Assembly (NCBI GenBank): GCA_013178125.1
Contig: JABLXJ010000001.1
Location: 326,538 to 390,537 of the forward strand
Reading direction: 5' to 3'
DNA length: 64,000 nt
Origin: Bacillota bacterium
GTDB lineage: Bacteria; Bacillota; SHA-98; Ch115; JABLXJ01
The notes beneath the pieces are model-generated. The model did no database searches. It saw only the letters and a list, made by a program, of their open reading frames with translations, and was not told the DNA's origin. Of the stretch, positions 2 through 26,957 are shown in pieces. How positions within the stretch are numbered: the first letter of the stretch is position 1; each line of letters begins with the position of its first letter. A program made the position numbers and the translations under genes.

Positions 2-2533
2 AAGGGCAAATATGACGTGGTGGCTGACATGAAAGGCCCGCTCATGGACGAGATTGTAAGGGCCAAAGAGGCTTTGAGAAGTCTTTCGGGTGTCAAGGCC
101 GGGCCGGTGGCAGACCTGAGAGGGGAGTTATTCGGACAGCTTGCAAGGGCTCAATCGCTGCTTAAAGGGCTGGATGATATGATAGCTAGGCCCAGGGCCA
201 CGCTGATAGACCGGGTGTCCAGTGCAGCCGGTTGGATCGGTTCCAAGCTACGCGGCCTCACAGGCAGAGTGTGGACAGTGACCATCCGGGCCAAGAATAT
301 GGTGACTGGAGCTATCAGTGGGATTATGCGGGCCGTGACTTCGCCGCTCGGGATGCTCGGTATCGGTATTGGTGGCGCGGCGGTTACAGCGGCGGCAGTA
401 GTTAAACCGTTACAGTTAGCCGGGCAGATGGAGCAGGCGAAGATAGGCTTCGAGACGATGCTAAAGTCCGGGGAAAAGGCCGACAGGTTTCTAAAGGACC
501 TACAAAGATTCGCGGCCCTCACACCGTTTGAGTTTCCGGAACTCCAGGACGCCTCCAAACGTCTTCTGGCCTTTGGATTCAGTGCAAAAGAGATACTTCC
601 CACTATGACGGCTATTGGGAATGCGGCTTCCGGCCTTGGGATAGGCGCTGAGGGCATTGACAGGTTAATCCTTGCTATTGGTCAGATGAGGGCCAAGGCC
701 AAGGTATCGGGCGAGGAAATGAGGCAGTTGACTGAGGCCGGTATCCCTGCCTGGGATATGCTAGCGAAGGCGATGGGCAAGAGCACCGCCGAGGTCATGA
801 AGATGTCCGAGAAGGGCCTCATTCCTGCCAGCAAGGCCATTGATATTTTCATCAAGGGCATGAATGAGCGATTTCCAAACATGATGGCGCGGCAGTCGAG
901 GTCTCTCCTGGGCCTGTGGAGCACGATAAAAGATGTTTTCAACATGGGTATCGTATTTCGCTGGGGCGACGGCTTAAGCAGGGCTGTTAAGCCCAGGATG
1001 GAGCGGTTGGTTGATCTCTTTACCCGGAACGAAGATGTAACCAAGCGCTGGGGAGACACTTTAGAGAAAGTAGCATTCCGGGCCGGAGATAGAATCATGA
1101 CATGCCTGGAGCGGGCCTTCAATATGATTGATCGTCTGCTCAAGGACCCAAGATTCCAGAAGGCTGACCTATTCGGGAAGACACAGATTCTATGGAGCGA
1201 AATCATAGTTAAACCTTTCGATAGATGGTGGGCTTCGGGTGGCAAAGAGTGGGCAACAAGGGCCGGAACCTCAATTGCCCAGTCTATTATGAAAGGCATT
1301 TTAGAAGTTGGCTCGAGTAACCCGCTCATGGGTGCTATCATAGGTAAAGCTATTGGAGGGTTACCGGGTGCCGCTGTGGGTGCCGGTTGGGGCCTCGGAG
1401 GTTATATCGGTGAAAAGGCTAGAAAGTTGATAGATAAAGCGTGGGCGCCACGTGAGGCCGAACGGTATAAGACGTGGGAGGAAAGGACACGAGACCTCCA
1501 GGAGAAATTGAAGGGCCAGGAATTGGTAATGCGGCCTGCATATGGTCAGGGTGCGATAGTGATGCGTCCACAGTTCGCCCTTGTCGGCGAAGCAGGCCCG
1601 GAGGCGATAATTCCTCTGACCCGTGAGCGGGAAAGGGCTTTAAGATTGTGGACCGAAGCCGGAAGGTGGCTGGGTGCGAATAGAGCGACTGGCATTGCGG
1701 CTGAAGAGCCTGCCCTCCGTGCGATAGAAGGCGGTATGTCGCAGAGGGTCAAGCAACTGCCGGTAGTGCAGGATGCTCAAAAGGCTACAGGCTGGCTGCA
1801 TGGCCTGGTATCTCGGGTAGCGGCGACGTTTAGGGTTCCCGTGGCCCTTTTAAGAGGGCTAATCCAGGCCGAGAGCAGTGGGAGAGCTGGAGTGGTTTCC
1901 CGTGTAGGCGCTATCGGGCTTACTCAAGTAATGCCTTCCACAGCCAGGAGCCTGGGCTATGAACCAGCGCAGTTGAGGACGCGGCCTGACCTACAGGTAG
2001 AGGCTGGAGCTAAATATTTGTCTCAAATGCTGAGGCAGTTTGAGAGTGTCCCGCTTGCGCTTGCGGCATACAATGCCGGGCCAAACGCGGTGAGGAGATA
2101 TAAAGGTATACCTCCATACCCTGAGACGCAGGCGTATGTAAAGAGGGTTATGAGTTTTGCTAAGTCCTACGGGCTGCCTGGTTATGCAAAAGGAACGATA
2201 GCCACAAGGCCGCATATTGCAAGGGTGGCTGAGGAAGGCCCGGAGGCGATAATTCCGCTTACTCCTCGTTTCCGGTTGAGGGCTTTGGAACTCTGGCAGG
2301 AAGCTGGGCAACATCTCGGAGTTAAAGGGTTCAAGGATGGAGGGTTTACGACTTCGCTGGCTGTCGGACCTTCTAAGGGCGGGTCGAATACTACTGTTGT
2401 CCACATTCACATGGGCGAAGCAGTCAAGACGATCCAGGTCAACTCCAGAGCCGATGCTGGCAAGGTTGCAGACGAGGCGGCAGGGATAGTGGCGAGGAAC
2501 CTTCGGGCTGTCCTGGAGAACTTAGCGAGCTAA
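2..2533 (+). CDS. phage tail tape measure protein with lytic transglycosylase (SLT) domain; 5' partial
   Basis: Frame is open to the window start. SLT motifs GLTQVMPSTA and AAYNAGPNAVRRY; two 28-aa internal repeats (GPEAIIPLT...); first gene of the tail module. Confidence 0.8.
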   Translation, partial: KGKYDVVADMKGPLMDEIVRAKEALRSLSGVKAGPVADLRGELFGQLARAQSLLKGLDDMIARPRATLIDRVSSAAGWIGSKLRGLTGRVWTVTIRAKNMVTGAISGIMRAVTSPLGMLGIGIGGAAVTAAAVVKPLQLAGQMEQAKIGFETMLKSGEKADRFLKDLQRFAALTPFEFPELQDASKRLLAFGFSAKEILPTMTAIGNAASGLGIGAEGIDRLILAIGQMRAKAKVSGEEMRQLTEAGIPAWDMLAKAMGKSTAEVMKMSEKGLIPASKAIDIFIKGMNERFPNMMARQSRSLLGLWSTIKDVFNMGIVFRWGDGLSRAVKPRMERLVDLFTRNEDVTKRWGDTLEKVAFRAGDRIMTCLERAFNMIDRLLKDPRFQKADLFGKTQILWSEIIVKPFDRWWASGGKEWATRAGTSIAQSIMKGILEVGSSNPLMGAIIGKAIGGLPGAAVGAGWGLGGYIGEKARKLIDKAWAPREAERYKTWEERTRDLQEKLKGQELVMRPAYGQGAIVMRPQFALVGEAGPEAIIPLTRERERALRLWTEAGRWLGANRATGIAAEEPALRAIEGGMSQRVKQLPVVQDAQKATGWLHGLVSRVAATFRVPVALLRGLIQAESSGRAGVVSRVGAIGLTQVMPSTARSLGYEPAQLRTRPDLQVEAGAKYLSQMLRQFESVPLALAAYNAGPNAVRRYKGIPPYPETQAYVKRVMSFAKSYGLPGYAKGTIATRPHIARVAEEGPEAIIPLTPRFRLRALELWQEAGQHLGVKGFKDGGFTTSLAVGPSKGGSNTTVVHIHMGEAVKTIQVNSRADAGKVADEAAGIVARNLRAVLENLAS

Positions 2534-2549: not shown

Positions 2550-3182
2550 ATGGACTTCTATTTTTTGGCGGAGGGTTCAACGTTCCGGCTCCCTGTGAAT
2601 CCTGAAGAGGTCACGGTCGAGGGCGAGAAGCAGATAGAGACAGTAAATGTAATCAATTTAGGAGAGATAGACTTCCCGACAGGAGACAGGCGGACCGGAA
2701 TTCGGTTCGCCTCATTTTTCCCTGCTCATTATGATTCGGGCTATTGCAGATATGCGGACATTCCAGACCCAAAAGAGGCTATCAATCAATTGATAGACCT
2801 GCGGACAGAGGGCAAGCCGGTAAGGTTTTTGGTGACTGAGACTACCATAAATACCTTGGCGTTGGTAACCTCAGTGAATTACACCATTAAGGGTGGAGAA
2901 CCCGGTGATATTTACTATGAGGTGTCCCTTCGGACATGGAGAGACGTCAAGGTGAGGACGGCGGCGCAGCCTGCAGAGAAGAGAGAGTCCAGGCCGAGGC
3001 CGGACACAAAGCCAGTGCCGAAGGTGTATATCACAAAAGAGGGTGACAGTCTCTATAAGATAGCGAAACTCCAATTGAATGATGGGAACCGGTGGCGCGA
3101 CATTTACTCCGCGAATCGGAAGGTCATAGGTCCTGATCCCAACAGGCTGCAACCAGGAACTAAGCTGGTGATGCCTAAATGA
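2550..3182 (+). CDS. phage LysM-domain protein (XkdP-like)
   Basis: C-terminal LysM motif YITKEGDSLYKIAKLQLNDGNRWRDIYSANR; position directly after tape measure. Confidence 0.7.
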   Translation: MDFYFLAEGSTFRLPVNPEEVTVEGEKQIETVNVINLGEIDFPTGDRRTGIRFASFFPAHYDSGYCRYADIPDPKEAINQLIDLRTEGKPVRFLVTETTINTLALVTSVNYTIKGGEPGDIYYEVSLRTWRDVKVRTAAQPAEKRESRPRPDTKPVPKVYITKEGDSLYKIAKLQLNDGNRWRDIYSANRKVIGPDPNRLQPGTKLVMPK

Positions 3183-4129
3183 TTGAGGTCGTCCTTGCGA
3201 ACAGGTATTATCTCGGTGACTTGCTGGAGGAGGCTACCCTGGCAGACAGTCTCGCAGAGATAGCATACCGTGGCGAAATTACCTTGGTTGTTACTCCTGA
3301 CTTACCAGTGATTGCGCCGGGCCAGGAGATCAGGATAAGCGGTCCTCACCCAGTCTCAGGTAACATGGTGGTCCTGCTTGATGGCGTGGTCTGGACCGTG
3401 GAGAGCAGGACGCGAGGGCAGAAACATGTCACGGTTACGGTCTATGACCGGACGATTTACTTGGATAGGTCGGAGGATGAATACCTCTTCCCGGCAGGCC
3501 AGACAGCCACGGCGAGGTTGAAACGGTATACCGCTGACTGGAGCATTCCGCTGGGCCGGGTAGTAGATACAGGTGTGGCCCTCGGGAAGGCTGTTTACAG
3601 GGCGCAGACGATATTCAACATGCTCTGGACGGATCTCAAAGAGACGGCAAGGCAGGGCGGGCTATACCGGGCGCGGATGGCTGGGAAGCAGTTGGAGCTT
3701 GTGCGGCTCGGGAGTAATAGCACGGTCTGGCAGTTGGAGACCTTCGAGGAGGTTGCCCAGTCTCGCACCCTGGAGGGCGCGGTGACGAAAGTTAAGGTTT
3801 TGGGTGCGGCGATAGAGGACACGAAGTCCTCCGTGATGGCCGTGGAGACTGGAGAAACAAAGCTGGGCACTCTCCAGAGGGTGATTCAAGATGAGCAGAT
3901 AACTACCCAGGGTATGGCGAAGGCGGCGGCAAAGGCGCTACTTACAGGGATTCAAGAGACGGTTACTGTTACCGGCCCTGATATCCCGACAATACGGGCA
4001 GGAGATAAGGTTACGTTGAATGGTGCCTCCTGGCTTGTGACTACTGCCCAGCACTCCCTGGGAGATCCGGGCCACATGACCCTGGACCTGGCGTCAGAAC
4101 AATACATCAGGAGGCGGTACTATGCCTGA
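3179..4129 (+). CDS. phage tail/baseplate protein (XkdQ-like)
   Basis: Size and position in tail module; start overlaps the upstream stop. Confidence 0.45.
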   Translation: MIEVVLANRYYLGDLLEEATLADSLAEIAYRGEITLVVTPDLPVIAPGQEIRISGPHPVSGNMVVLLDGVVWTVESRTRGQKHVTVTVYDRTIYLDRSEDEYLFPAGQTATARLKRYTADWSIPLGRVVDTGVALGKAVYRAQTIFNMLWTDLKETARQGGLYRARMAGKQLELVRLGSNSTVWQLETFEEVAQSRTLEGAVTKVKVLGAAIEDTKSSVMAVETGETKLGTLQRVIQDEQITTQGMAKAAAKALLTGIQETVTVTGPDIPTIRAGDKVTLNGASWLVTTAQHSLGDPGHMTLDLASEQYIRRRYYA

Positions 4130-4592
4130 TGCAATGACTGAGTTAGCTGTTGAACTCCAGCGGATGGCAAGGCAGGCCTCCTCACAAGCTATCGCAGGGC
4201 TGGCGTCTGAACTAGGGACTATTACGGCGAAGGGTGTAAAGCTGGATAGATACAAACATGAATTCACAGACCCGCTAGTTCTGGAGCCGGTGATAGACCT
4301 GGATATAGAGCTTACTCTTAAAGTCCCTAAACACGATGAAACTGGGCAGATCGTGCTACCGGCTATACCGACTCAGGCCCATAGTCCTACAGTCGCGGGA
4401 ACGTATACGGTGACTTATAAGTTCGATGATTGGATTTACAATGCTGAGGAGAAGCCGGAGAAGCTTATAAAGATCACTAAGGCCCGGATAAAACACAAGC
4501 CGGAGTATAAACCCGGCGACAGGGTTATATGTGCCCTGGTTAATGGAGGTCGGGACGTGGTGATCATATCGCGGGTGGTGCCTTATGCCTGA
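4122..4592 (+). CDS. phage baseplate-associated protein (XkdR-like)
   Basis: Overlapping translationally coupled ORF in tail module. Confidence 0.35.
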   Translation: MPDAMTELAVELQRMARQASSQAIAGLASELGTITAKGVKLDRYKHEFTDPLVLEPVIDLDIELTLKVPKHDETGQIVLPAIPTQAHSPTVAGTYTVTYKFDDWIYNAEEKPEKLIKITKARIKHKPEYKPGDRVICALVNGGRDVVIISRVVPYA

Positions 4593-5037
4593 ACAGTTAT
4601 TTCCGGTTGATGAGCCGGAGATTGAGCCGGCGGGAACAGAAGAGCGCCAGGTTTCCTTTGGGAGATCGTGGCGCTTCGATTTTGATAAGGGCGAATTCGT
4701 CCTTACTCCTACGGGCCGGGTAGCAGAGAGTGAAGGCGCGGATGCGTGGCTTGAATGGTGCCAGAAGGCCCTTATGACGGCTCGGTATAGGTATATGGTC
4801 TATTCCCGTTCTTACGGCCAGGAATTTGAGGAATTGATCGGCAGGCACCTGACCAGAGAGGCGAACGAAAGCGAGATCAGGAGAATCGCCACGGAATGCC
4901 TTATGGTGGACCCCCGGACAGCTAGCGTAGGGAATTTCACTTTCCAGTGGGACGGGGACACAGTGTATTTCACCTGTGAGGTGTCGAATGTCCGGGGTGA
5001 AACAGGGACGGTGAGCGGAATGGTGGTGATTCAGTGA
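4585..5037 (+). CDS. phage baseplate protein (XkdS-like)
   Basis: Overlapping translationally coupled ORF in tail module. Confidence 0.35.
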   Translation: MPEQLFPVDEPEIEPAGTEERQVSFGRSWRFDFDKGEFVLTPTGRVAESEGADAWLEWCQKALMTARYRYMVYSRSYGQEFEELIGRHLTREANESEIRRIATECLMVDPRTASVGNFTFQWDGDTVYFTCEVSNVRGETGTVSGMVVIQ

Positions 5038-5921
5038 TGGCGGAGCTTACTCAGCGTCTGGAAGATCATAGTCTACAGATTGCTAGACAACGTGCTGCAT
5101 GGACAGCAGAGGAAGACGACATTTTACGTGAATGCTATCCGACAACAGAAGCTGCTGAGCTAGCCCAGAGGCTAGGACGGTCTACTTGGGCAGTGATAAT
5201 TAGGGCCAATCGTTTAGGCATTAGGAAGGATTGCGATTGGCTCAGGAGCTATCATGTGCGTCAGTGTGAAGACAAACGGATTGACTTTTTTAGGCAAGAT
5301 TATTTCTCCCAACCACTTACACCAGATAGCGCATACTGGCTTGGTTTTATTCAGGCTGATGGTTCCATTGACCTTTATGGTGGGGCGAATGCCTTAAAAG
5401 TCCAGTTGGCTGAATGTGATATTGCTCATTTGCGGTTGCTAAAGAATGATTTAGGGACTTCACGAGAAATATTGAAAGGAAATCCAGGTCAAGTAGTACT
5501 TAAGGTAAACTCACGGAAAATGATAAGCGATCTCTTGAAGCTTGGGATTATGCCGCGCAAGGCATTTACTCATACTTATCCCAAAATCACGGAGCCTCAA
5601 TTGGTATCGCACTATATCCGTGGCATATTTGACGGAGATGGATGTATTGCGGTCCGGCGACGTAAGGGAGTATATGATCCCATATTCAATATTGCGGGCG
5701 GAAAAGACTTCTGTAAGTGGGCATTGGAAATTATAAGACAACATGCTGGTATTAGGGGTGGGGGGATCAGCAAAGATCCCAACTCTGACAAAACCTGGCA
5801 CATTCAGATTTGCGGGTATCAGCAGGTTAAACGGGTTTATATGTGGCTCTATTTCGGTGCTACGCGTTGGTTAGCAAGAAAACGGGAGAAGTTTGAGTTG
5901 ATGTATGAGGGGGTGGGCTAA
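5034..5921 (+). CDS. LAGLIDADG-family homing endonuclease (free-standing, inside prophage tail module)
   Basis: Two LAGLIDADG-type motifs (YWLGFIQADGSI and IRGIFDGDGCI); N-terminal HTH-like region; visibly AT-richer than flanking phage genes. Confidence 0.7.
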   Translation: MMAELTQRLEDHSLQIARQRAAWTAEEDDILRECYPTTEAAELAQRLGRSTWAVIIRANRLGIRKDCDWLRSYHVRQCEDKRIDFFRQDYFSQPLTPDSAYWLGFIQADGSIDLYGGANALKVQLAECDIAHLRLLKNDLGTSREILKGNPGQVVLKVNSRKMISDLLKLGIMPRKAFTHTYPKITEPQLVSHYIRGIFDGDGCIAVRRRKGVYDPIFNIAGGKDFCKWALEIIRQHAGIRGGGISKDPNSDKTWHIQICGYQQVKRVYMWLYFGATRWLARKREKFELMYEGVG

Positions 5922-7013
5922 ATGGCAGAGTTGCCTCCTTATTTGGAGGACCAGACATATGAAGCCATACTGCAACGCATGCTTAATGCCTTACCCCCTG
6001 ATATATCAAAGGCCGAAGGGGATTTTATTTGGGATTCGCTCTCCCCGACTGCCATTGAGCTTGCCCTGGCTGCCCTTTGGGCGCAGGAGGTTCTACGGAG
6101 AGGGTTCGCCAGTACTACCTTTGATCAATACCTTGATATGCGCTGCGGTGAGCATGGAGTTATCAGGCGGCCTGCGGTGAAGGCCACAGGGAAGGTGAAG
6201 TTTACCGGCACAGCAGGTGCTGTAGTCCCTTCTGGGATCAGGGTGGCGACTCCTGCCGATCCCACGACAGGTGCGCAGTCTGTAGAGTTTATAACTACAG
6301 AGAGTGTCACCCTGGATGCCAATGGTGAGGGCTTTGCCGCAATAGAGGCTGTCGAGGCCGGCTCTGGCGGGAATGTGGTGGCAGGTGCAATAAGTGTTTT
6401 GGTGGCTCCGGTGACTGGTGTAAATGCGGTGACTAACCCTGAGCCGACAACCGGAGGGATTGATACTGAAAGCGATGAGTCCTTGCTTAACCGCTATTAT
6501 CTCAAGGTCAGGACTCCTGCCACAAGCGGGAATAAGGCGCATTACATGAACTGGGCGCTGGAGGTACCAGGTGTCGGTGACGCGAAGGTCATTCCGCTCT
6601 GGAATGGTCCTGGAACTGTAAAGGTTTTGGTCGTGGACAGCGAGAAACAGCCTGCCAGCCCTGAGCTTGTGGCCGCTGTGGCGGAGCATATCGAGGAAGA
6701 AAGGCCGATAGGAGCGGCGGTAACTGTGGTGGCTGCAACAGGTGTCACGGTTTCGGTGACTGCTACAGTAACCCTGGATACCGGATATATCCTCAATGAT
6801 ATTCAGACAGAGTTTGTAAAGAGACTCAGGGATTATTTTGCGAGTATTGCCTTCAGGCAGACGTATGTGAGCTATGCACAGATAGGCTCGATCCTTCTGG
6901 GCATTCCTGGAGTGATGGATTACTCCAGCCTCCAGGTGAACGGAGGGACCGCAAATGTGACTCTTGGGGATGAAGGGGTTCCGGTCCTGGGAACCGTGAC
7001 GCTGAGTGTCTAG
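5922..7013 (+). CDS. phage baseplate J-like protein (XkdT-like)
   Basis: Size, N-terminal region and position before tail-fibre genes. Confidence 0.6.
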   Translation: MAELPPYLEDQTYEAILQRMLNALPPDISKAEGDFIWDSLSPTAIELALAALWAQEVLRRGFASTTFDQYLDMRCGEHGVIRRPAVKATGKVKFTGTAGAVVPSGIRVATPADPTTGAQSVEFITTESVTLDANGEGFAAIEAVEAGSGGNVVAGAISVLVAPVTGVNAVTNPEPTTGGIDTESDESLLNRYYLKVRTPATSGNKAHYMNWALEVPGVGDAKVIPLWNGPGTVKVLVVDSEKQPASPELVAAVAEHIEEERPIGAAVTVVAATGVTVSVTATVTLDTGYILNDIQTEFVKRLRDYFASIAFRQTYVSYAQIGSILLGIPGVMDYSSLQVNGGTANVTLGDEGVPVLGTVTLSV

Positions 7014-7026
7014 GCGGGTGGTTTGA

Positions 7027-7449
7027 ATGAGTTACCCTCAGGCGGTAGACCAATTTATTACGAAGCTGAACCGACGGGCTATCCCATATGTGATCCAGGA
7101 TGAAGTCATAATGCTAAATGATGGTTTGGGTGAGAGTTTCCTTGCCCATGACAATGTAAAGACTGACACTCTGGAGGTCTGGACTGGACCTGGTAAGACT
7201 GGCGTAAAGATTGTGACCTACACCATTCGGTCCCCAGGGGATACTCCATGGAAAACCTTGCTCCGGGTAATGGCTCCGGTTGAAAAGGTATATGTCACTT
7301 ATGAATCTTTGGGGGATCAGGTGGAAGCCGAGGATATGAACACGGTGCAAAGCAGCCTTGTGGCGACACAGACGGAGCTCGAACGGCATAAGGCCGATCT
7401 TAACTGCCATATAGAAAACGGAGAAATAGACGGAGGCAGCTTCGTGTAG
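7027..7449 (+). CDS. hypothetical phage protein
   Basis: ORF in tail module, no recognised motif. Confidence 0.4.
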   Translation: MSYPQAVDQFITKLNRRAIPYVIQDEVIMLNDGLGESFLAHDNVKTDTLEVWTGPGKTGVKIVTYTIRSPGDTPWKTLLRVMAPVEKVYVTYESLGDQVEAEDMNTVQSSLVATQTELERHKADLNCHIENGEIDGGSFV

Positions 7450-7467
7450 ATGGAGGGGTGAGACAGA

Positions 7468-8493
7468 ATGCCTCAGATAATCAAGATTCGGCGCGGGACT
7501 AAAGTGGAACTTGTCGCACGCGGAGCATTGGCCAGTGGAGAGCTCGGGTTCTGTACCGACACGAAAGAGGTCTATATCGGTGACGGTACGACGAACATCT
7601 TCGTAGGCCGGGCCATGTCGGGAACCTACGTAAACCGTCCCAACGCCTCAGTGCCAGGCAGATTCTACTACGTGACGTCAGGTGAGAATGCGGGATACCT
7701 GTATATCGATGACGGAACGACCTGGCACCGGGTCAATGCCCAGGCTCTATCTGATCTCACCGGCACCATTGACGATATCGCTGACGGCGCGACCTATGCA
7801 AAAGTCCTCAAAACCGATGTTTCCGGAGGGCACGTGAACAAGGTTTCGGACGGCACAAATACCAAGACCGCGGCGGAGATCGCGGGACACATAAATAACG
7901 TGACCATTCACCGGTTAATTAATGATAGCGGTACCGGCCCCACAGACCTGTGGTCAGCTCAGAAAATCAGGAACGAAATCGAGCTTGCAAAGCACAACAT
8001 CGAACCGCAGGCGAGCGTGAAGGACCAGCACTTAACCACGCCACCCTCAACACCAGCTGTTGGGGACAGGTATATAGTTCCTGCCGGTGCTACTGGGGCA
8101 TGGGTCGACAAGACGAATCAAATCGCCGAATGGAATGGTTCCGCCTGGGACTTTTATACCCCTCAGATAGGTTGGACCTGCTACGTCGACGATGAAGAGA
8201 AGGTCTACTCCTGGAACGGGAGTGCGTGGGTGAGGACAGGCGGAGCTCTCCAAACCATCGTGGCAGGGGCAGGCCTCACCGGTGGGGGTCAAGCTGATAC
8301 AGTTACTCTCAACGTGGGCGCAGGTAACGGAATCGTGGTAGACCCTGACTCGATCTCCGTAAAAGCCTACAATGGGATCACGGTCGACGGAAATGGTGTG
8401 GCTGCAAACATTGACGGGGTTTCCATCGTGTATGACGCGGCCAATGGCAACTGCCTGATGGTGGCCGCGGTGGATGGTGGAACGTTCGCATAG
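7468..8493 (+). CDS. phage tail fibre protein (paralogue 1)
   Basis: Conserved tail-fibre N-terminal motif IKIRRGT...ELGF.TDT...IGDG; RBS present. Confidence 0.6.
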   Translation: MPQIIKIRRGTKVELVARGALASGELGFCTDTKEVYIGDGTTNIFVGRAMSGTYVNRPNASVPGRFYYVTSGENAGYLYIDDGTTWHRVNAQALSDLTGTIDDIADGATYAKVLKTDVSGGHVNKVSDGTNTKTAAEIAGHINNVTIHRLINDSGTGPTDLWSAQKIRNEIELAKHNIEPQASVKDQHLTTPPSTPAVGDRYIVPAGATGAWVDKTNQIAEWNGSAWDFYTPQIGWTCYVDDEEKVYSWNGSAWVRTGGALQTIVAGAGLTGGGQADTVTLNVGAGNGIVVDPDSISVKAYNGITVDGNGVAANIDGVSIVYDAANGNCLMVAAVDGGTFA

Positions 8494-8504
8494 GTGGTGA
8501 TAGC

Positions 8505-9473
8505 ATGCCGAGGAAGGTACTCATCCAGATTCGCCGGGGGACGGAGGCCGAGCTGTCGGGCATTACCCTTGCTCCAGGGGAATTGGGGTTCACGACTGAT
8601 ACCAATAAGCTCTTCATCGGTACGACCGCGGGGAACGTTCTACTGGTCAACGTCTCCACGGCTGGTGATATGCTCAAAAGTGTCTACGACACCGATAATG
8701 ACGGCAAGGTAGACGCGGCTGAGGTGGCGGATAGTACTCCATGGGCAGGGGTAACGGGGAAACCCTCAACATTCCCGCCATCGGCCCACAAGAGCACCCA
8801 TGCTTCTGGGGGTAGCGATGCGCTTACACCGGGAGACATAGGGGCGGTAAATAAAGCTGGGGATATGATAACCGGTCCGATAGGGTTTCGTATCGGCAGT
8901 GCTAATCCTCGCTATCACCAAAACGTGGCGGCATACGAGTGGTCAACCAGTAGTGCGGCAGGAGCCTTTGTAATTGAGACCCCAATAACTGCTGCCTCCG
9001 AAAATGTTATGATGCGGTTATTAATAGAGGGATACTTTTATGATAGCACTTCGCCATTTTTTCTAATAGTAGGGGGATATATTTATGCATCCGGACCGAG
9101 TTTCTATAACTATGGTTACATTAATCTGAGTAAGAAACGCCCACTTGTGCGATGGGGACGTAATATAGCTACAGGCAAGGTTGTGCTGATCATTGGTGAT
9201 GTTGGAGACGTTTACTCATATCCTAAGTTATGGGTATCGCTTTTGGAGGGGCATAGTTCGAGCGATAATCACAGAACTGGCTGGACTATCACTCAGAAAA
9301 CTGACCTAACTGGGTATGATTTACTTACAACGGTGCTTGATGTGGGGGCCTTCTGGCACGCAGGCAACGACGGTTCTAATTCGGGTCTAGACGCTGACCT
9401 GCTTGACGGTCAGCACGCCTCGGCTTTCATGCCCAAAGGTCCTGTCACCTGGAACCAGCTAGCCGGGGTTTAG
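8505..9473 (+). CDS. phage tail fibre protein (paralogue 2)
   Basis: Same N-terminal motif (IQIRRGTEAEL...GELGFTTDT); C-terminal LDADLLDGQHASAF tail-fibre motif; AT-richer C-terminal half. Confidence 0.6.
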   Translation: MPRKVLIQIRRGTEAELSGITLAPGELGFTTDTNKLFIGTTAGNVLLVNVSTAGDMLKSVYDTDNDGKVDAAEVADSTPWAGVTGKPSTFPPSAHKSTHASGGSDALTPGDIGAVNKAGDMITGPIGFRIGSANPRYHQNVAAYEWSTSSAAGAFVIETPITAASENVMMRLLIEGYFYDSTSPFFLIVGGYIYASGPSFYNYGYINLSKKRPLVRWGRNIATGKVVLIIGDVGDVYSYPKLWVSLLEGHSSSDNHRTGWTITQKTDLTGYDLLTTVLDVGAFWHAGNDGSNSGLDADLLDGQHASAFMPKGPVTWNQLAGV

Positions 9474-10112: not shown

Positions 10113-10901
10113 GTGACGCCTATGCAGACTACTTCTAACTATGGGCTAAAGAAACCGGATGGAACTGACGTAGTGAATATCTCGGACCTAAATTACAATG
10201 CCGATCAGATTGACGCGGCACTAACCCCCACGGCAGACCCGTCCCAGACACCAACGAACAACGGGCCGGGCAAGCTGGTGCAGTGGGTAAGCTGGATCGC
10301 TAACCGCATCAAGGCGATCACGGGAAAGGCGAACTGGTGGGAGGCTCCGGCGACGACCCTTGAGGCGGCAAAGGCCCACATGGACGCGGTGGCACCGCAC
10401 AGCGGGCATGTGCTGACCAGTGATGTTGTAACGGTGCCGACAGCTAACAAGATCCTCCGGTTAAATTCTGACGGTAAATTGCCTGCCAGCATCACGGGTG
10501 ATGCCGCAACAGTTGGCGGTGTCAGCCCCAGTGGTTTTGCTCCGTCCTCGCATGTTGGAGCCGGAGGGTCAGCCCACGCGGTAGCCACTACAACGACGGC
10601 GGGCTTTATGTCGGCGGCGGACAAAAGCAAACTTGACTCGATACCTTCCGGTGCGGAACCTAACCAGAATGCGTTTAGTAATGTCAAGGTAGGAGCTACG
10701 ATTATATCTGCTGATCAGGAGCAGGATACCCTTGAACTGGTAGCCGGGGCTAACGTTACGTTAACCCCGGATGCTGAAGGGGATAAGGTGACTATAGGGG
10801 TAAGTGGACTAACTGTGGCGCGAAACGGCGGACAAAATATCTGGGTACAGTCTACTCAACCTACGGCTCAGGCGGTAGGTGACATCTGGATTCAGACTTA
10901 A
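10113..10901 (+). CDS. phage tail fibre protein with fibre-repeat motif
   Basis: N-terminal TSNYGLKKPDGTD and GFMSAADKSKLD tail-fibre repeat motifs. Confidence 0.6.
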   Translation: MTPMQTTSNYGLKKPDGTDVVNISDLNYNADQIDAALTPTADPSQTPTNNGPGKLVQWVSWIANRIKAITGKANWWEAPATTLEAAKAHMDAVAPHSGHVLTSDVVTVPTANKILRLNSDGKLPASITGDAATVGGVSPSGFAPSSHVGAGGSAHAVATTTTAGFMSAADKSKLDSIPSGAEPNQNAFSNVKVGATIISADQEQDTLELVAGANVTLTPDAEGDKVTIGVSGLTVARNGGQNIWVQSTQPTAQAVGDIWIQT

Positions 10902-10932
10902 GACTGTTGGCGGTGCTTGGGGGGGTGATGGA

Positions 10933-11970
10933 ATGGCACAGCTCAAATATTGGAATGGAAGCGCGTGGGTGGATTATAAGAAAAAGCCAAAGTATTGGAA
11001 TGGTAGTCAGTGGGTGTCTGGTATCGGCAAAGTGTGGAATGGGAGTGCATGGGTAGACCTCTTGAGTTATTATTCTTATTTTGGTAGTTGGGCTAGCACC
11101 TATTCTTATTCTAATTTGTATAAGGTTTCATCTACTGGGTCTCAGGTGTGGCAAGTTCGTTGGACTTTCCAAGGCATAAGAGATGTGAAAGTAGACCCTA
11201 ATGGATATATTTATACTGCTAGTGGTGACGGCGCTGCTGTCCGCAAAATATCACCTTCCGGCTCCCTGGTGTGGCGTTTTGTGGGCAGTACTGGATATGG
11301 TGCAAATGGAGTAGCAGTAGGTTCTGATGGATACGTTTACTCTGCTAATAGTGACGGTACTGTCCGTAAAATAACACCTAATGGTGGACAGGTGTGGTGT
11401 TTTACTGACCCGGATCGCACATTTTATGCTGTAGCAGTAGATATTAATAACTATGTGTACGCTGGCTGTTCTAACTATACTAAAGCTATTCGCAAAATAT
11501 CACCTAGTGGGGGAGAGGTATGGGCTTTATCTCGTAGCAGTTTTGGGTCGGATGTAGTAGTAGATGCCCAAGGGAATGTTTATTGTAGCTCCGGAAGCCT
11601 TTATAAGGTGTCATCAAGCGGTTCAGTGCTATGGGAATTCACAAACGCGAGCGGAAGTCCTACAGTAGGCCCTGGTGGATATGTTTATGCGTCCGGTAGT
11701 AGTGGTCTTATCGCTAAAATATCACCTAGTGGATCACAAGTGTGGGGTTACACCGATCCAAATTCATCTTCGGTAATTAGTCTAACAGTAGACCCATACG
11801 GATATATTTATTATTGTCCTTATGCAGGGGCACCCTCTTCATCTACTGTATATTGCTATTACAAAATATCGCCTAGTGGTGTTAGATTATGGACTTTCGT
11901 TGTTGCGGAAGGTGAAGGATATGTTGCAGTTGACCCTGGAGTTTTAGGAGCTTTCCCAAGTTATTGGTAA
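10933..11970 (+). CDS. beta-propeller repeat protein, putative distal tail/receptor-binding protein
   Basis: Seven repeats of the type VRKISPSGS.VW.F; three N-terminal WNGSAWV repeats; RBS before ATG at 10933 (track start 10879 overlaps upstream gene); AT-rich. Confidence 0.5.
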   Translation: MAQLKYWNGSAWVDYKKKPKYWNGSQWVSGIGKVWNGSAWVDLLSYYSYFGSWASTYSYSNLYKVSSTGSQVWQVRWTFQGIRDVKVDPNGYIYTASGDGAAVRKISPSGSLVWRFVGSTGYGANGVAVGSDGYVYSANSDGTVRKITPNGGQVWCFTDPDRTFYAVAVDINNYVYAGCSNYTKAIRKISPSGGEVWALSRSSFGSDVVVDAQGNVYCSSGSLYKVSSSGSVLWEFTNASGSPTVGPGGYVYASGSSGLIAKISPSGSQVWGYTDPNSSSVISLTVDPYGYIYYCPYAGAPSSSTVYCYYKISPSGVRLWTFVVAEGEGYVAVDPGVLGAFPSYW

Positions 11971-12777: not shown

Positions 12778-13338
12778 ATGCCGGAGATGAAAAGGCTGAT
12801 CTGCCTCGATCCAGGACACGGTGGGGTGGACCCCGGAGCTATAGGCCAGGCCGGGATTAAGGAAGCGGATATTAACCTGGCCGTAGCGATGAAGCTCAAG
12901 ACGGAGCTGGCTGAGAGAGGCATTCCCACTGTAATGACCAGGGATGACGATACGTTCGTGTCGCTCCAGGATCGCGCATCCAAGGCGAATGCTGCGAATG
13001 CTGCGGTTTTTATTTCCCTGCACTGCAATTCGGCTCAAAACCGCGAAGCGAATGGTGCCGAGGTTTACTACTGCATTGGCAGCAGGCCCGGGGAAGCCCT
13101 GGCGAACGCGATACATGCTTCCCTGATCAAGGCTACCGGCCTCGTCGATCGTGGTGTGAAGGGGACAGGCTTCTATGTCCTCCGGCATACCAAGATGCCT
13201 GCTGTCTTGGTGGAGCTCGCGTTTATTTCTAATTCGGGAGAGGAGGAGCTATTGGCAAATGAGGGATTCCAGTTGAAGGCCGCAAGGGCCATTGCCAGCG
13301 GGATAATAGATTATCTGAAAGGAGCGAGGAAAATATGA
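12778..13338 (+). CDS. N-acetylmuramoyl-L-alanine amidase (endolysin, Amidase_3-type)
   Basis: Motifs CLDPGHGG and LHCNS...EVYY; lysis cassette position. Confidence 0.85.
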   Translation: MPEMKRLICLDPGHGGVDPGAIGQAGIKEADINLAVAMKLKTELAERGIPTVMTRDDDTFVSLQDRASKANAANAAVFISLHCNSAQNREANGAEVYYCIGSRPGEALANAIHASLIKATGLVDRGVKGTGFYVLRHTKMPAVLVELAFISNSGEEELLANEGFQLKAARAIASGIIDYLKGARKI

Positions 13339-22368: not shown

Positions 22369-22404
22369 ATAAGTGATGAAAGGAAATTGCAGGAGGGAAA
22401 CGAA

Positions 22405-23196
22405 ATGACAAACAGGGCATTCGGAATTGAAATAGAGGCTTATGGAGTGAGCCAGTTCGAGCTAGAGGACAGACTCCGGCAGGCTGGGATACAGGTAAGG
22501 GTTGAAGGGTACAACCATAGCACCAGGGAACACTGGAAAATAGTTAGCGACGGCTCAATCCAAGGCCCGGACTCGTTCGAACTAGTCAGCCCTCCACTGA
22601 GCGGAGAAGAAGGACTCAATCAGATTAGGACAGTATGCCGGGTGCTGGATGAGGTAGGCGCGAAGGTTAACAAGTCGTGTGGCTTCCATGTCCACCACTC
22701 GGCGGCAGACCTGACACCAAAGGCCCTGCAGGCATTGATCGGACTATACACTAGGTTCCAGGGCGCGCTAGACGAGATAGTAGCAAAGAGCCGCCGCGGT
22801 AATAACAATACATACTGCCGGGCCCTTAGCAATGAACTATACTACAGGGCCCTCAGGCGGGATGACTTACAGGGTATTGTATGTTGCCAGGATAGTAGGT
22901 ATTATAAACTTAACCTGCAAGCATATCTGAGGCATGGCACGATAGAGATTCGGCACCACCAGGGCACCGTGAATGCTGACAAAATAATAAACTGGATCAG
23001 GTTGACCCAGGCGATAGTTGAGGCGGCGGTGAGGTTAAACCACAGCAAGCTGAGCTTGGACAACCACACGGGCCGTCTGGATCACGACAGGTGGCACTTC
23101 TGGAACACAGTGAAAAAGGTCTTGGATGCAGGTGAATTCGAGGAGCTAAGGGCATACTACGGGCAGCGGCGCAAGGAGCTCGCCGCTGCCGCCTAG
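22405..23196 (+). CDS. glutamine-synthetase-like amidoligase (Amidoligase_2-type), putative
   Basis: N-terminal FGIEIE and C-terminal GTIEIRHHQGT motifs recalled as typical of GS-like amidoligases; RBS aggaggg 7 nt before ATG. Confidence 0.5.
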   Translation: MTNRAFGIEIEAYGVSQFELEDRLRQAGIQVRVEGYNHSTREHWKIVSDGSIQGPDSFELVSPPLSGEEGLNQIRTVCRVLDEVGAKVNKSCGFHVHHSAADLTPKALQALIGLYTRFQGALDEIVAKSRRGNNNTYCRALSNELYYRALRRDDLQGIVCCQDSRYYKLNLQAYLRHGTIEIRHHQGTVNADKIINWIRLTQAIVEAAVRLNHSKLSLDNHTGRLDHDRWHFWNTVKKVLDAGEFEELRAYYGQRRKELAAAA

Positions 23197-24310: not shown

Positions 24311-24416
24311 GATGTATCCTATGGAAACCTTTGTATCACTTGTTGACATCGTGATCAAAACCTGATACGGTTGGAATTGAATGAAAATCCTCCTGCATGT
24401 GGGAAGGGATATTGAA

Positions 24417-25364
24417 ATGACAGCTATGCAGAAGTGGACGAAGGAGTCTGTTGTGGAGGCTATCCATGCACGGTCTAAGAAAGGGCTGGCACTAAATTAT
24501 CAAGCTGTTGTAAAGGACGATGAACCGCTTACAGGTGCCGCCAGGCGATATTTCGGCTCCTGGAATACAGCGTTACAAGCGGCTGGATTTGACCCGGCAG
24601 CGATAAAAAGGGAGGCAAGGAGTGGACTTCGCAGATCGCGCGGCTCCTGGACTAAGGAGGATGTAATCGAGGGTATTCGTAGAGCGGCGGCGGAGGGTCA
24701 AGACCTCTCGGCGCATAGGATGCAACAGTGGGACCCTTCTTTAGTGGCTACGGGCCAGCGGCTATTTGGTTCCTGGGCCGATGCACTCAAGGCCGCAGGA
24801 TACGCGCCTGACCTAATTTACAGGGCTCGTGTGTGGACGGATGATGAAATCCTCAAGCGTGTCAAGTATTTAGCCAAGTATGGCGCTGACCTGACTGACC
24901 GGACTGCATCCGGATACGACAAAGGTCTCTATGCCGCGGCCATAAAACATTTCGGGTCATGGGCTTCTGCCTTGGAACGGGCGGGAGTTCCACCTGAGCG
25001 GCGCACGGCGAAGTGGTCGAAGAATAAGGTTTTGGAGGCTATCCGTAATGGTAGGCGTGATGGCACGATTAAAGCTATAGCTCTGGATTATTTCCCTTCA
25101 TGGGCAACGGCCCTACGGAAGGCAGGTATCCCGGAAGATAAGGCACAAGAAGTCGGCAACCGTATCCGTGAACGACGGGAGGCTCTGGGTATGAGCCAGG
25201 GTGAGTTAGGCCGGTTCTTAGGGTATAGTCATAGGACCATTTCGATGCTGGAACTTGGGCAGCTCCGTGATCCGCGGGTAAGTGTGGCATTGAAGCTGGC
25301 GAAGGCACTGAAGTGTAGTGTTGAGGACATCTTCTATACTGAGGAAAAGGAAATATTATTCTAA
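24417..25364 (+). CDS. DNA-binding protein with four homing-endonuclease-associated repeats (HEAR) and C-terminal XRE HTH
   Basis: Four repeats ending FGSW..AL..AG; C-terminal HTH LGMSQGELGRFLGYSHRTISMLELG; RBS gggaaggga before ATG 24417. Confidence 0.6.
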   Translation: MTAMQKWTKESVVEAIHARSKKGLALNYQAVVKDDEPLTGAARRYFGSWNTALQAAGFDPAAIKREARSGLRRSRGSWTKEDVIEGIRRAAAEGQDLSAHRMQQWDPSLVATGQRLFGSWADALKAAGYAPDLIYRARVWTDDEILKRVKYLAKYGADLTDRTASGYDKGLYAAAIKHFGSWASALERAGVPPERRTAKWSKNKVLEAIRNGRRDGTIKAIALDYFPSWATALRKAGIPEDKAQEVGNRIRERREALGMSQGELGRFLGYSHRTISMLELGQLRDPRVSVALKLAKALKCSVEDIFYTEEKEILF

Positions 25365-25390: not shown

Positions 25391-25816
25391 TTACTTATCC
25401 CTGAGAACCATCAGGTATGGCTCCAGGGCGGCAAGATGTACCGTGCTTGGTGTGCGTTTTCCTTTCTCCCAGGTGGCTATGGTGTGTACATCCACTCCAA
25501 TGGCCCTTGCGAATTCGACCTTCGCCAGCCCGTGGAAAAGGCGGGCTTTCCTTATGCGCTGCCCGAGCGTTTCCTCGGGCAGGGTCTCGAAACCGCCTAA
25601 ATAAGGTATTGGGACGTCAAGAGTCTGGGACAGAATCCGAAGAGTAGGCATGGAGGCCGGTTCTTTCCCGGCTTCGATCCTGCCTATTGTTGCACAGTTC
25701 AAACCGGTGATGGAAGCTAAGTCGCGGATGGTCATGCCCTTCGCTATCCTCGCCCGCCTGAGCCGCAGCCCTGGTGTGTTGCCTGGCCATTCCTGCCTTA
25801 ATACCCACGGTGGCAT
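25391..25816 (-). CDS. XRE-family transcriptional regulator with two HTH domains
   Basis: Two XRE HTH segments (GMTIRDLASITGLNCATIGRIE and LAKVEFARAIGVDVHTIATWE); start uncertain (ATG 25816 or GTG 25837). Confidence 0.6.
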   Translation of the reverse strand: MPPWVLRQEWPGNTPGLRLRRARIAKGMTIRDLASITGLNCATIGRIEAGKEPASMPTLRILSQTLDVPIPYLGGFETLPEETLGQRIRKARLFHGLAKVEFARAIGVDVHTIATWEKGKRTPSTVHLAALEPYLMVLRDK

Positions 25817-25856
25817 ATCTTTCTGTCTGGTTATCACAATTTCAAGGTTGTTGTCT

Positions 25857-26957
25857 TCACGGGCACGGGTTGGACGTTGCTATAAGAGTAAAACGAGCAG
25901 GATACCAGACGGATCCTGAGGCTCTCGATATGGTTATTACGCCATCTTCCAGGGGCTGGCGCAGGGACTCCAGGACATTCCTGCGAAACTCGGGGAGCTC
26001 GTCCAGGAAGAGCACGCCCCGGTGGGCGAGGCTTATCTCCCCCGGTCGCGGGATTTTGCCCCCGCCGATCATCCCTATGTCGGATGCGGTATGATGGGGG
26101 GCCCTGAACGGCCTCGCTGCGATCAGCCCGCTATCGGGCGAGATGAGGCCGGCTATGCTGTAGATCTTGGTGACCTGGATCGCCTCATCCCTCTCCAGCG
26201 GGGGGAGAATGGTTGGTATGCGTTTGGCGAGCATGGTCTTGCCCGATCCCGGGGGGCCTATCATAAGGAGGTTGTGCCCGCCTGCCGCGGCCACCTCGAG
26301 GGCCCGCTTGGCGTGCTGGTGGCCTTTTACATCGCTGAAGTCGACATCGAATTCGATGCTAGGCGAGGCCCCGTTGCTGCCGGCCGGGATCGGGGTGGGA
26401 GCGGAGGATGATGCGTCCAGTTCGCCGGCCAGGAAGGACAGCACTTCATTGAGGCGCCTGAAGGGATAGACCTTTATGCCTTCAACTACCGAAGCTTCCC
26501 GCGCGTTACCGGCGGGCACGATGATGCCGGGCCAGCCCTCGCGTTTTGCTACCTCAGCTATGGGGAGGATGCCTGTTGTGCCGCGGAGCTCCCCATCGAG
26601 GGAGAGCTCGCCGACGATGAGGTATTTTGAGGTGGCCTCCTCGGGGATATCGCCGCACGCCGCCACGATCCCAATTGCTATTGGAAGGTCGAAGCAGGTG
26701 CCTTCTTTTCTGATTGTTGCGGGCGCGAGGTTGACTGTTATGCGCTTTACCGGGAATTCGCGCCCCGAGTTTTTGAGGGCCGCTCTGACGCGTTCTTTGG
26801 ATTCGCGGGTTATGGTGTCGGGCAGGCCGACGATTTCGAAACAGGGGAGCCCCTGGGCGATGTCGACCTCGATCCTGACTACGTAGCCTTCTATTCCGAG
26901 GACTGCACCGCTGAAGGTCTTCGCGAGCAATGTGTCCACTCTCCTTTCCTTTCCCAT
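25857..26957 (-). CDS. comM: Mg-chelatase-like AAA+ ATPase YifB/ComM, 3'-truncated (ends right after NPCP)
   Basis: Lon-like N-domain, Walker A GPPGSGKT, Walker [11 protein letters not shown]; about 366 aa instead of about 500; stop directly after the NPCP motif. Confidence 0.7.

Follow-up and report, generated by a model that had tools for sequence, protein, structure and literature searches.

A putative free-standing LAGLIDADG homing endonuclease gene at the overlapping XkdS/Baseplate_J junction of a PBSX-like prophage tail operon

The stretch of DNA analysed here (the window) comprises 64,000 nucleotides of a Bacillota bacterium genome (contig JABLXJ010000001.1, positions 326,538 to 390,537) and starts inside a contractile-tail prophage. 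Its tail module (Table 1) contains an open reading frame (ORF) that a first-pass annotation, made from the letters alone, had placed between an XkdS-like and a baseplate J-like gene, and the domain searches agree with this placement: the upstream gene matches the Sheath_initiator family (Pfam PF10934, E = 2e-39) and the downstream gene matches Baseplate_J (PF04865, E = 7.6e-77). We read the ORF as a free-standing homing endonuclease gene (HEG) encoding a single-chain, two-domain LAGLIDADG protein with an N-terminal GcrA/Myb-like helix-turn-helix (HTH) domain, inserted at the overlap junction of XkdS and Baseplate_J within the late tail operon of a contractile-tail prophage resembling PBSX, where its product would promote homing (probability about 0.8).

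The HEG ORF ends at position 5921 on the + strand and encodes 295 amino acids (aa) from a GTG at 5034, or 294 aa from an ATG at 5037. The ATG is the likelier start, because it lies in the TGATG overlap used for Baseplate_J by HEG-free relatives and is the start of an identical 294-aa database protein (P0001). This ATG overlaps the XkdS stop codon TGA (5035–5037) by 1 nucleotide (nt), or by 4 nt if the GTG is used, while the HEG stop codon TAA (5919–5921) abuts the Baseplate_J ATG (5922) with no overlap; the overlaps with both neighbours that had been described earlier thus hold at the start of the ORF and not at its stop. No promoter-like or terminator-like site was found on the + strand within the HEG region, and the ORF is therefore embedded in the late tail transcript. 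In base composition the HEG is foreign. Its GC content is 0.455 and its GC content at third codon positions (GC3) is 0.42, compared to 0.54–0.55 and 0.54–0.62, respectively, for the two flanking genes. When codons were redrawn from the usage of the 11 other tail genes, a GC3 of 0.59 ± 0.027 was expected (z = –6.1), in agreement with the first impression that this DNA is AT-richer than its neighbours. HEGs at the same site in other genomes are also AT-rich (GC3 0.34 in locus L016 from Moorella and 0.32 in L019, against flanks of ~0.6–0.7).

The HEG product belongs to the LAGLIDADG family by profile, motifs and predicted fold. Pfam PF14528 (LAGLIDADG_3) matched with 28.2 bits against a gathering score of 22.5, with its best stretch at residues 193–213 of the 295-aa reading, and the profile phrog_4645 (‘endonuclease’) matched residues 24–287 over 261 of its 308 positions (E = 8.8e-40). 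A large protein search yielded 142 homologues, nearly all with a precomputed PF14528 assignment, and >554 relatives were found in IMG/VR viral contigs. The two LAGLIDADG-type motifs noticed at first pass (Table 1; residue numbers of motifs refer to the 294-aa protein) are invariant as YWLGFxxADG and RGxFDGDG, including Asp108 and Asp201, in an alignment of 18 homologues (A1), across which K175, R281 and K282 are likewise conserved. The AlphaFold2 model of the protein (pLDDT 89, pTM 0.71) consists of a helical N-terminal domain (residues 2–76), a low-confidence linker and two alpha/beta domains that open with long helices at residues 96–108 and 187–201. In a Foldseek comparison of this model with the PDB, the top 50 matches were all LAGLIDADG enzymes or maturases (E ~ 3e-9, probability 1.00 for many), among them bI3 maturase, I-PanMI, I-SmaMI, I-OnuI, I-AniI and I-Tsp061I; the last of these (PDB 2dch) agreed best once scores were normalised to the target (TM 0.64, root-mean-square deviation 3.8 Å, 21% identity) and was also the sole, weak, sequence match in the PDB. 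The model thus predicts a two-copy LAGLIDADG core (alpha-beta-beta-alpha-beta-beta-alpha). The family assignment made at first pass, for which a profile search had been proposed as the check, is supported by LAGLIDADG_3, phrog_4645 and Foldseek alike, and no GIY-YIG or HNH catalytic domain was found in the HEG with Pfam or PHROG profiles. LAGLIDADG enzymes cleave both DNA strands site-specifically at targets of ~14–40 bp, leaving 4-nt 3′ overhangs.

The N-terminal HTH domain was recognised by several profiles. A profile built from the HTH region of nine homologues (A2) matched PDB entry 2lvs (3.4e-5) and the GcrA DNA-binding domain 5yiu (1.3e-3), and Pfam gave weak Myb and GcrA matches to the region. 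It was also matched by phrog_323, a D5-like ‘transcriptional regulator’ (1e-10), and the non-catalytic DNA-binding part of phrog_1891, a phage HNH endonuclease, weakly matched residues 7–69 (1.6e-3). According to the Pfam annotation of homologues, the HTH type at this N-terminal position differs between family members; varied HTH types are typical of the modular DNA-binding domains joined to phage homing endonucleases (PMC10448857). The HTH is presumed to be an auxiliary DNA-binding module. In the relative P0007 (L018 4948–5000, and L020), which lies upstream of a tail sheath gene, the frame is open upstream of the annotated TTG and encodes the conserved W-T-x-E-E of the HTH; this upstream stretch lacks a canonical start codon, for which a decaying N-terminus or a non-canonical start may be the explanation.

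Relatives of the flanking genes that lack the HEG were assembled from three collections (18 loci, 16 distinct sequences; L001–L005, L007–L015 and L103–L106). The HEG was not detected by tblastn in any of these loci, and the 12 distinct sequences in which both XkdS and Baseplate_J could be placed all show the two genes overlapping or abutting. At the nucleotide level, eight of ten HEG-free junctions have a TGATG or TAATG overlap, and in L012 and L007 the two genes abut. Thus, in the comparison with insertion-free prophages that had been suggested at first pass, the junction is uninterrupted wherever it could be read, and the HEG is no universal structural gene of related phages. The closest modules, L103/L104 (JGI metagenome 3300006674) and L105/L106 (Limnochordales metagenome-assembled genome (MAG) GCA_014896315.1), have the same gene order as the window from the tape-measure gene to the fibres and no HEG. 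Gene by gene, their proteins are 58–82% (L105) and 48–71% (L103) identical to those of the window, and the two modules together show identities of 71–72% for XkdS, 66–68% for Baseplate_J and 82% for a fibre. An identical HEG recurs only once, in a Logan contig of 1.1 kb (L006, run SRR6186653), which assembles both HEG junctions independently with 100% identity. These comparisons point to a presence/absence polymorphism of the HEG at a defined site. As for closer relatives, a Baseplate_J scan of genome contigs returned one distant locus only, blastn of window positions 3000–9000 against GenBank phages gave no match, and exact look-ups of the window XkdS and Baseplate_J proteins gave none.

The anatomy of the junction suggests how the insertion is accommodated. 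The HEG is bounded by a 12-nt imperfect direct repeat (Table 1), and the corresponding empty-site starts in HEG-free relatives read TGATGGCGGAGCTGCC (L013) and TAATGGCCGAGTTGCC (L105). The L105 junction is ggaatggtggtgattccctaATGGCCGAGTTGCCAGAG; the left flank of the window is identical to it through ggaatggtggtgattc and the right flank resumes at ATGGCAGAGTTGCC. The empty site can therefore be reconstructed to the nucleotide. Baseplate_J begins with MAEL in HEG-free L008, L013 and L105 and with MADL, MATL or MAVEL in others, and two other HEGs at the junction begin with MAEL (L016) and MAEV (L019); in L016, a 9-nt exact repeat ATAAGTGGC spanning both start codons is present at both junctions. 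Our reading of this arrangement is that the element inserted within the first Baseplate_J codons and took over the native ribosome-binding site (RBS) GGTGGTGA together with the coupled start, and that the last HEG codons, GAGGGGGTGGGCTAA, would give the displaced Baseplate_J a replacement RBS and the stop before it. The HEG 3′ ends of all five HEG-containing loci carry a Shine-Dalgarno-like G-rich run 4–11 nt before the Baseplate_J start. The 12-nt duplication is too short to tell its origin, and deletion between the repeats would restore a perfect empty site.

As a control, each HEG was compared with downstream genes taken from other loci, and a common prefix of at least three residues occurred in ~0.2% of these pairs; among real pairs, after removal of two scoring artefacts (L035 and L053), such a prefix was seen only in the window and its duplicate L006. 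Copying of the first codons of the downstream gene was therefore rejected as a family-wide rule, and N-terminal capture is retained for the window locus and, more weakly, for L016. An origin of the HEG tail (..YEGVG) as a duplicated XkdS 3′ end, compared with ..IEGVF at the end of XkdS in L008, was set aside as indistinguishable from convergence on a Shine-Dalgarno sequence. A 141-nt fold over the 17-nt inverted repeat at the downstream junction (Table 1) had a minimum free energy of –51.7 kcal/mol (z = –4.0) and is not conserved in the other HEG-containing loci; an mRNA hairpin hiding the Baseplate_J RBS was rejected as a common feature, the pairing probability at Baseplate_J starts (0.36–0.86) overlapping that at other starts (0.43–0.68). 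A separate, perfect 12-bp hairpin, CTGCCCTCTGAC..GTCAGAGGGCAG, lies within a coding stretch for LPSDLDKSEGS (Baseplate_J codons ~23–34) in L105 (~5070–5101) and L016 (~5986–6017); its counterparts in L008, L013 and L103 are weaker, and the window has none.

The HEG has its own start and stop codons, positions 4300–6600 contained no Rfam family, group I and II introns included, at E ≤ 1, and no intein/Hint domain was found in the HEG with Pfam; the HEG is therefore free-standing, outside any intron or intein.

Table 1. Coordinates of the tail module and of the elements discussed, with the loci of related HEGs (positions refer to the window)
Feature	Position	Strand	Remarks
Tape-measure protein	17–2533		
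LysM protein	2550–3182		
YqbQ-like protein	3179–4129		
156-aa protein	4122–4592		
XkdS-type sheath initiator (gp25-like baseplate gene)	4585–5037	+	phrog_120
Native ribosome-binding site GGTGGTGA	5022–5029	+	In XkdS 3′ end; would serve Baseplate_J in HEG-free relatives and the HEG here
HEG ORF	5037–5921 (alternative GTG start 5034)	+	HTH domain, linker and two LAGLIDADG alpha/beta domains in one chain
Left copy of 12-nt imperfect direct repeat, ATGGCGGAGCTT (MAEL)	5037–5048	+	Native Baseplate_J start and first four codons, now HEG start
HTH domain, GcrA/Myb-like	5094–5225 (aa ~20–63)	+	Motif WTxEEDxxL..YPT..ELAxxLGRSxxAVxxRAxRLGIRK
LAGLIDADG motif 1, YWLGFIQADG	5334–5363 (aa 100–109)	+	Conserved Asp108; aligns with first motif of I-Tsp061I
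LAGLIDADG motif 2, HYIRGIFDGDGC	5610–5645 (aa 192–203)	+	Core IRGIFDGDG, conserved Asp201; aligns with second motif of I-Tsp061I
Imperfect 17-nt inverted repeat, 88% complementary	5898–5914 / 5993–6009	+	Could pair new Baseplate_J Shine-Dalgarno with Baseplate_J codons 24–30 in mRNA
HEG 3′ end (..EGVG, stop)	5907–5921	+	New Shine-Dalgarno GAGGGGGTGGG at 5907–5917; stop TAA 5919–5921
Right copy of 12-nt repeat, ATGGCAGAGTTG (MAEL)	5922–5933	+	Working Baseplate_J start; two synonymous differences from left copy
Baseplate_J (gp47/XkdT-type)	5922–7013	+	
140-aa protein; two Mtd_N-domain fibres; Mu Gp48-like protein; further fibre-like ORFs			In this order after Baseplate_J
Small XkdX-like and holin-like ORFs			After the fibre-like ORFs
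Amidase_3 lysin	12778–13338		
Junction HEG P0005			L016 (Moorella sp. E306M genome) and L017 (Logan contig)
Junction HEG P0003			L019
Junction HEGs P0002 and P0004			1-kb contigs L100 and L101, respectively; ends translate to XkdS-like C-terminus (..PERLEVVLGG, stop) and Baseplate_J N-terminus (MANLPLFLEDQTYETILQ; VTELPTYLEDQTFEAILRRML)
HEGs immediately upstream of tail sheath gene (pre-sheath)			P0007/L018, L020, P0008/L107 (Paenibacillus campinasensis)
HEGs among head-tail connector genes			L021, L023

Homologous HEGs recur at this junction. P0002–P0005, the closest non-identical homologues, are 37–41% identical to the window HEG by pairwise local alignment, and all four lie between an XkdS-like and a Baseplate_J-like gene. 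The HEG start overlaps the XkdS stop in each of the five junction loci. In the window, the HEG and Baseplate_J share a reading frame, their starts (5037 and 5922) both being multiples of 3, a relation that L016 and L019 do not preserve. The presence of four divergent relatives at the exact junction in other prophages strengthens the initial view of a selfish element that invaded the tail module. Further relatives occupy other sites in structural operons (Table 1), and among the 80 best IMG/VR relatives none has XkdS or Baseplate_J next to the HEG. In a bootstrapped neighbour-joining (NJ) distance tree, based on 217 columns at ~40% identity and weak in its deep branches, P0002–P0005 group together in 94.5% of replicates. 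Downstream of the HEG-bearing baseplate genes of Moorella sp. E306M (L016 9337–10822), a gene for an FGE-sulfatase-fold protein is followed by one for a bAvd/23S_rRNA_IVP protein, a pair typical of the targets and accessories of diversity-generating retroelements.

Traces of exchange at the junction were sought in the same alignments. L007, an ENA sediment metagenome contig (ORXB01012115), is a mosaic relative in which the XkdS stop abuts a TTG start of Baseplate_J with no overlap and Baseplate_J is followed directly by a Gp48-like gene. Its 156-aa protein and XkdS are 86–87% identical to those of the window and its Baseplate_J 47%, and nucleotide identity drifts gradually across the junction from ~0.7–0.88 to ~0.5–0.65. 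The first 60 aa of Baseplate_J are 53–77% identical across relatives, HEG-containing or HEG-free alike; QT[YF]E at residues 11–14 is present in 5/5 HEG-containing loci and in 2/8 tabulated HEG-free ones (Fisher ~0.016, uncorrected for phylogeny). The identity drop in L007 and the QT[YF]E distribution are weakly consistent with recombination at the junction, neither being decisive, and the GC3 profile of the Baseplate_J 5′ end and the flanks was uninformative on co-converted DNA.

How the element would move can be outlined from what is known of homing. The HEG protein would be made late, with the tail proteins. If a HEG-free relative were present in the same cell, through co-infection or superinfection of a lysogen, the enzyme would cut its conserved XkdS-end/Baseplate_J-start region, leaving 4-nt 3′ overhangs, and recombinational repair from the HEG-containing genome would copy the HEG and co-convert flanking baseplate sequence. 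Additional contacts to one side of the site may come from the HTH domain. Splitting of the site by the insertion would protect the HEG-containing allele, and the right-hand copy would differ from the reconstructed empty site by the two synonymous changes in the repeat and by its upstream context. We infer nuclease activity, a cleavage site and gene conversion of the flanking genes by analogy. Conversion of baseplate or fibre genes, which the first-pass annotation had raised, is expected from the way homing works, and the identity drop in L007 is the only local hint of it. The conserved Baseplate_J 5′ end is the likely homing target region, as a guess: the cleavage sites of free-standing phage endonucleases are often some way from where the gene is inserted (PMC2988022).

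Several observations weigh against the reading of the ORF as a homing endonuclease gene of this junction. PF00961 (LAGLIDADG_1) stayed under its threshold (18.5 vs 23.1 bits), and an NCBIfam search of the HEG gave no match. A composition at least as AT-rich as that of the HEG is found in 11.8% of the 885-nt windows across the 64 kb, including the fibre-like ORF at 10879–11970 and parts of the host region. The nearest other HEGs are only ~40% identical, and the one identical copy is a single short-read contig (L006). No near-identical pair of phage genomes with and without the HEG was found that could show recent homing or a co-conversion tract, the closest HEG-free relatives being 66–86% identical in the flanking proteins. 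The tree adds a further point: the window HEG falls outside a clade formed by P0002–P0005 with the other-site HEGs P0006, P0007, P0008 and P0010 (80% bootstrap), and an exclusive clade of the five junction HEGs appears in 14.5% of NJ replicates. A single site-faithful lineage is therefore not established, and the five HEGs may have colonised the junction independently, as a recurrently invaded hot spot rather than the home of one ancient site-specific lineage. We regard this as a serious possibility that falls somewhat short of even odds. Besides the tree, it is favoured by the distance of the window HEG from the same-site HEGs, about as great (37–41% identity) as from a pre-sheath HEG (39%), by its lack of a ~20-aa linker segment common to P0002–P0005, and by the XkdS C-terminus, ..VVIQ in the window and ..ISG or ..LGG at the other four loci. 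However, the weakness of the deep branches limits what this tree can say, one ancestral site with a single later switch to the pre-sheath site fits it too, and three of the five HEGs start with MAE[LV], the consensus start of Baseplate_J.

Two other explanations concern what the ORF is or does. It might be a relic or a domesticated derivative, which arrived by homing, cuts no more, and is kept by its translational coupling to Baseplate_J or as a DNA-binding regulator built from an HTH and a LAGLIDADG scaffold. Because the start of the essential Baseplate_J gene abuts the HEG stop and its RBS lies inside the HEG 3′ end, an open frame could be selected regardless of activity; in P0007/L018, at another site, no canonical start codon seems available for the complete HTH; and the structural matches include bI3, a LAGLIDADG protein that acts as a maturase and not as a nuclease. 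Decay once an element is fixed is also what the usual life cycle of HEGs predicts (see also PMC13619312). However, the HEG reading frame is intact, its motifs, acidic residues, K175, R281 and K282 are conserved in the 18 homologues, the model is confident across both nuclease domains, and there is no intron to mature, so that we consider a relic or domesticated gene improbable. In favour of an ordinary tail structural or assembly gene, or of the endonuclease of an intron or intein interrupting a baseplate gene, the ORF is part of the tail operon, shares its strand, has tight junctions with its neighbours and is in the frame of Baseplate_J. Nevertheless, none of the related HEG-free loci retrieved, fully syntenic modules among them, contains the ORF, it matches no structural-protein family in Pfam or PHROG and no intron or intein, a TAA codon separates it from Baseplate_J, and the shared frame is lost in L016 and L019; either identity is refuted by these results for practical purposes.

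The HEG protein resembles solved LAGLIDADG enzymes (I-Tsp061I of the I-DmoI type, I-SmaMI, I-OnuI, I-PanMI and I-AniI) in having two LAGLIDADG helices, each with an acidic residue, and, like the compact single-chain enzymes, it has two alpha/beta domains in one chain of ~200 aa. In contrast to I-Tsp061I and the larger monomers, which are encoded by group I or archaeal introns, the window HEG is free-standing, with 10–21% sequence identity, and it has the extra ~75-aa N-terminal GcrA/Myb-like HTH. With the free-standing HEGs of phage T4 (Seg, GIY-YIG; Mob, HNH) it shares the organisation as a stand-alone gene between conserved essential phage genes and the combination of a nuclease with a separate DNA-binding module, but its nuclease family is LAGLIDADG, and it lies at a junction without the intergenic spacer in which the T4 HEGs are found. 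There is no spacer here as the two genes overlap, and hence the insertion duplicates the beginning of Baseplate_J and provides it with a rebuilt RBS. A looser likeness is to mitochondrial ‘mobile ORF’ elements (e.g. at Allomyces atp6), which enter a gene end and bring or duplicate the displaced terminus, so that the host gene is not inactivated; with those elements it is the 3′ end that is replaced, by an in-frame fusion to the upstream gene, whereas the present case involves a 12-nt duplicated 5′ end of the downstream gene.

The protein family is already catalogued, as phrog_4645 and, for P0010, under the NCBI name ‘LAGLIDADG family homing endonuclease’. Together with proteins of that name from Paenibacillus and Moorella prophages, phrog_4645 is the direct sequence family of the window HEG, whose best non-identical relative in it is 41–43% identical, and its members also lie in virion structural operons. 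In the literature searched, we found no characterised member of phrog_4645, no paper linking LAGLIDADG genes to prophage baseplate junctions, and only organelle papers under ‘free-standing LAGLIDADG’. Phage HEGs that stand free next to essential and structural genes are well documented, and the characterised ones are GIY-YIG and HNH enzymes in intergenic spacers (PMC2988022). Intronless homing by such endonucleases relies on the repair of double-strand breaks and brings co-conversion of the flanks and marker exclusion with it (PMC2988022, PMC2330249, PMC2790892, PMC10448857), and HEGs have been proposed to mark the boundaries of genetic exchange near structural genes (PMC10448857; PMC3706429 for mycobacteriophage HNH genes).

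Other features of the window were recorded in passing. A database protein identical to the window Baseplate_J exists, annotated to a ‘Firmicutes bacterium’ MAG. Many Baseplate_J homologues (L001, L008, L009, L012 and many database matches) are ~516–540 aa long, compared to ~365 aa, the extra ~160–190 aa lying between query residues ~257 and ~290 in what looks like a variable inserted domain. Two consecutive fibre genes (7468–8493 and 8505–9473) open with the major tropism determinant N-terminal domain (Mtd_N), to which the first adds DUF2793; the portion of the prophage covered by the window showed no reverse transcriptase. The C-terminal two thirds of the second fibre are AT-rich (GC 0.40–0.44 at 8851–9300); its first ~120 aa are 71–85% identical to L105 and L103 and the remainder has no match there. 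The beta-propeller-like ORF at 10879–11970 (GC3 0.31) has no counterpart in L103 or L105, and the two AT-rich patches look like swapped host-range modules. Host genes follow the lysin, among them a LacI regulator and an ABC sugar transporter. In the region covered by 24381–25364 (+), 25391–25837 (–) and 25857–26957 (–), a protein with three ‘homing endonuclease associated repeats’ (PF18780) and a Cro/C1 HTH adjoins a second HTH protein. Beside it is a ComM/Mg-chelatase-like gene whose Mg_chelatase domain ends at profile position 160 of 207, and which an inserted element may have truncated; an Amidoligase_2 gene (22387–23196) lies nearby.

Beyond the homing endonuclease reading itself, we tentatively propose, as a speculation that may well prove wrong, that the HEG is a compact cassette adapted to overlapping gene junctions, which takes the coupled start and RBS of Baseplate_J and hands back a new RBS, start and first codons. 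Baseplate_J translation would then depend on HEG translation, which would shield the HEG from decay. Related lineages would have specialised on a few contractile-tail junctions (XkdS/Baseplate_J and pre-sheath), and their breaks would make these hot spots of exchange between the conserved tail core and the variable baseplate/fibre (host-range) module.

Free-standing HEGs are known drivers of phage genome mosaicism, and nearly all that have been studied encode GIY-YIG or HNH enzymes and come from T4-like lytic phages. The window locus provides a clean LAGLIDADG example in a temperate, PBSX-like tail module. The modest points of note are the recurrent occupation of one overlapping gene junction and the rebuilt translation start of the downstream gene. 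At least five divergent prophages carry a HEG at this junction, which separates the conserved tail core from the host-range baseplate and fibre genes; if the enzyme is active, it would be a natural candidate for promoting the exchange of host-range modules. About five enzymes with one target region at ~40% identity would also be useful for the study of specificity drift among LAGLIDADG proteins. Current understanding is unchanged by these findings, which extend a known theme.

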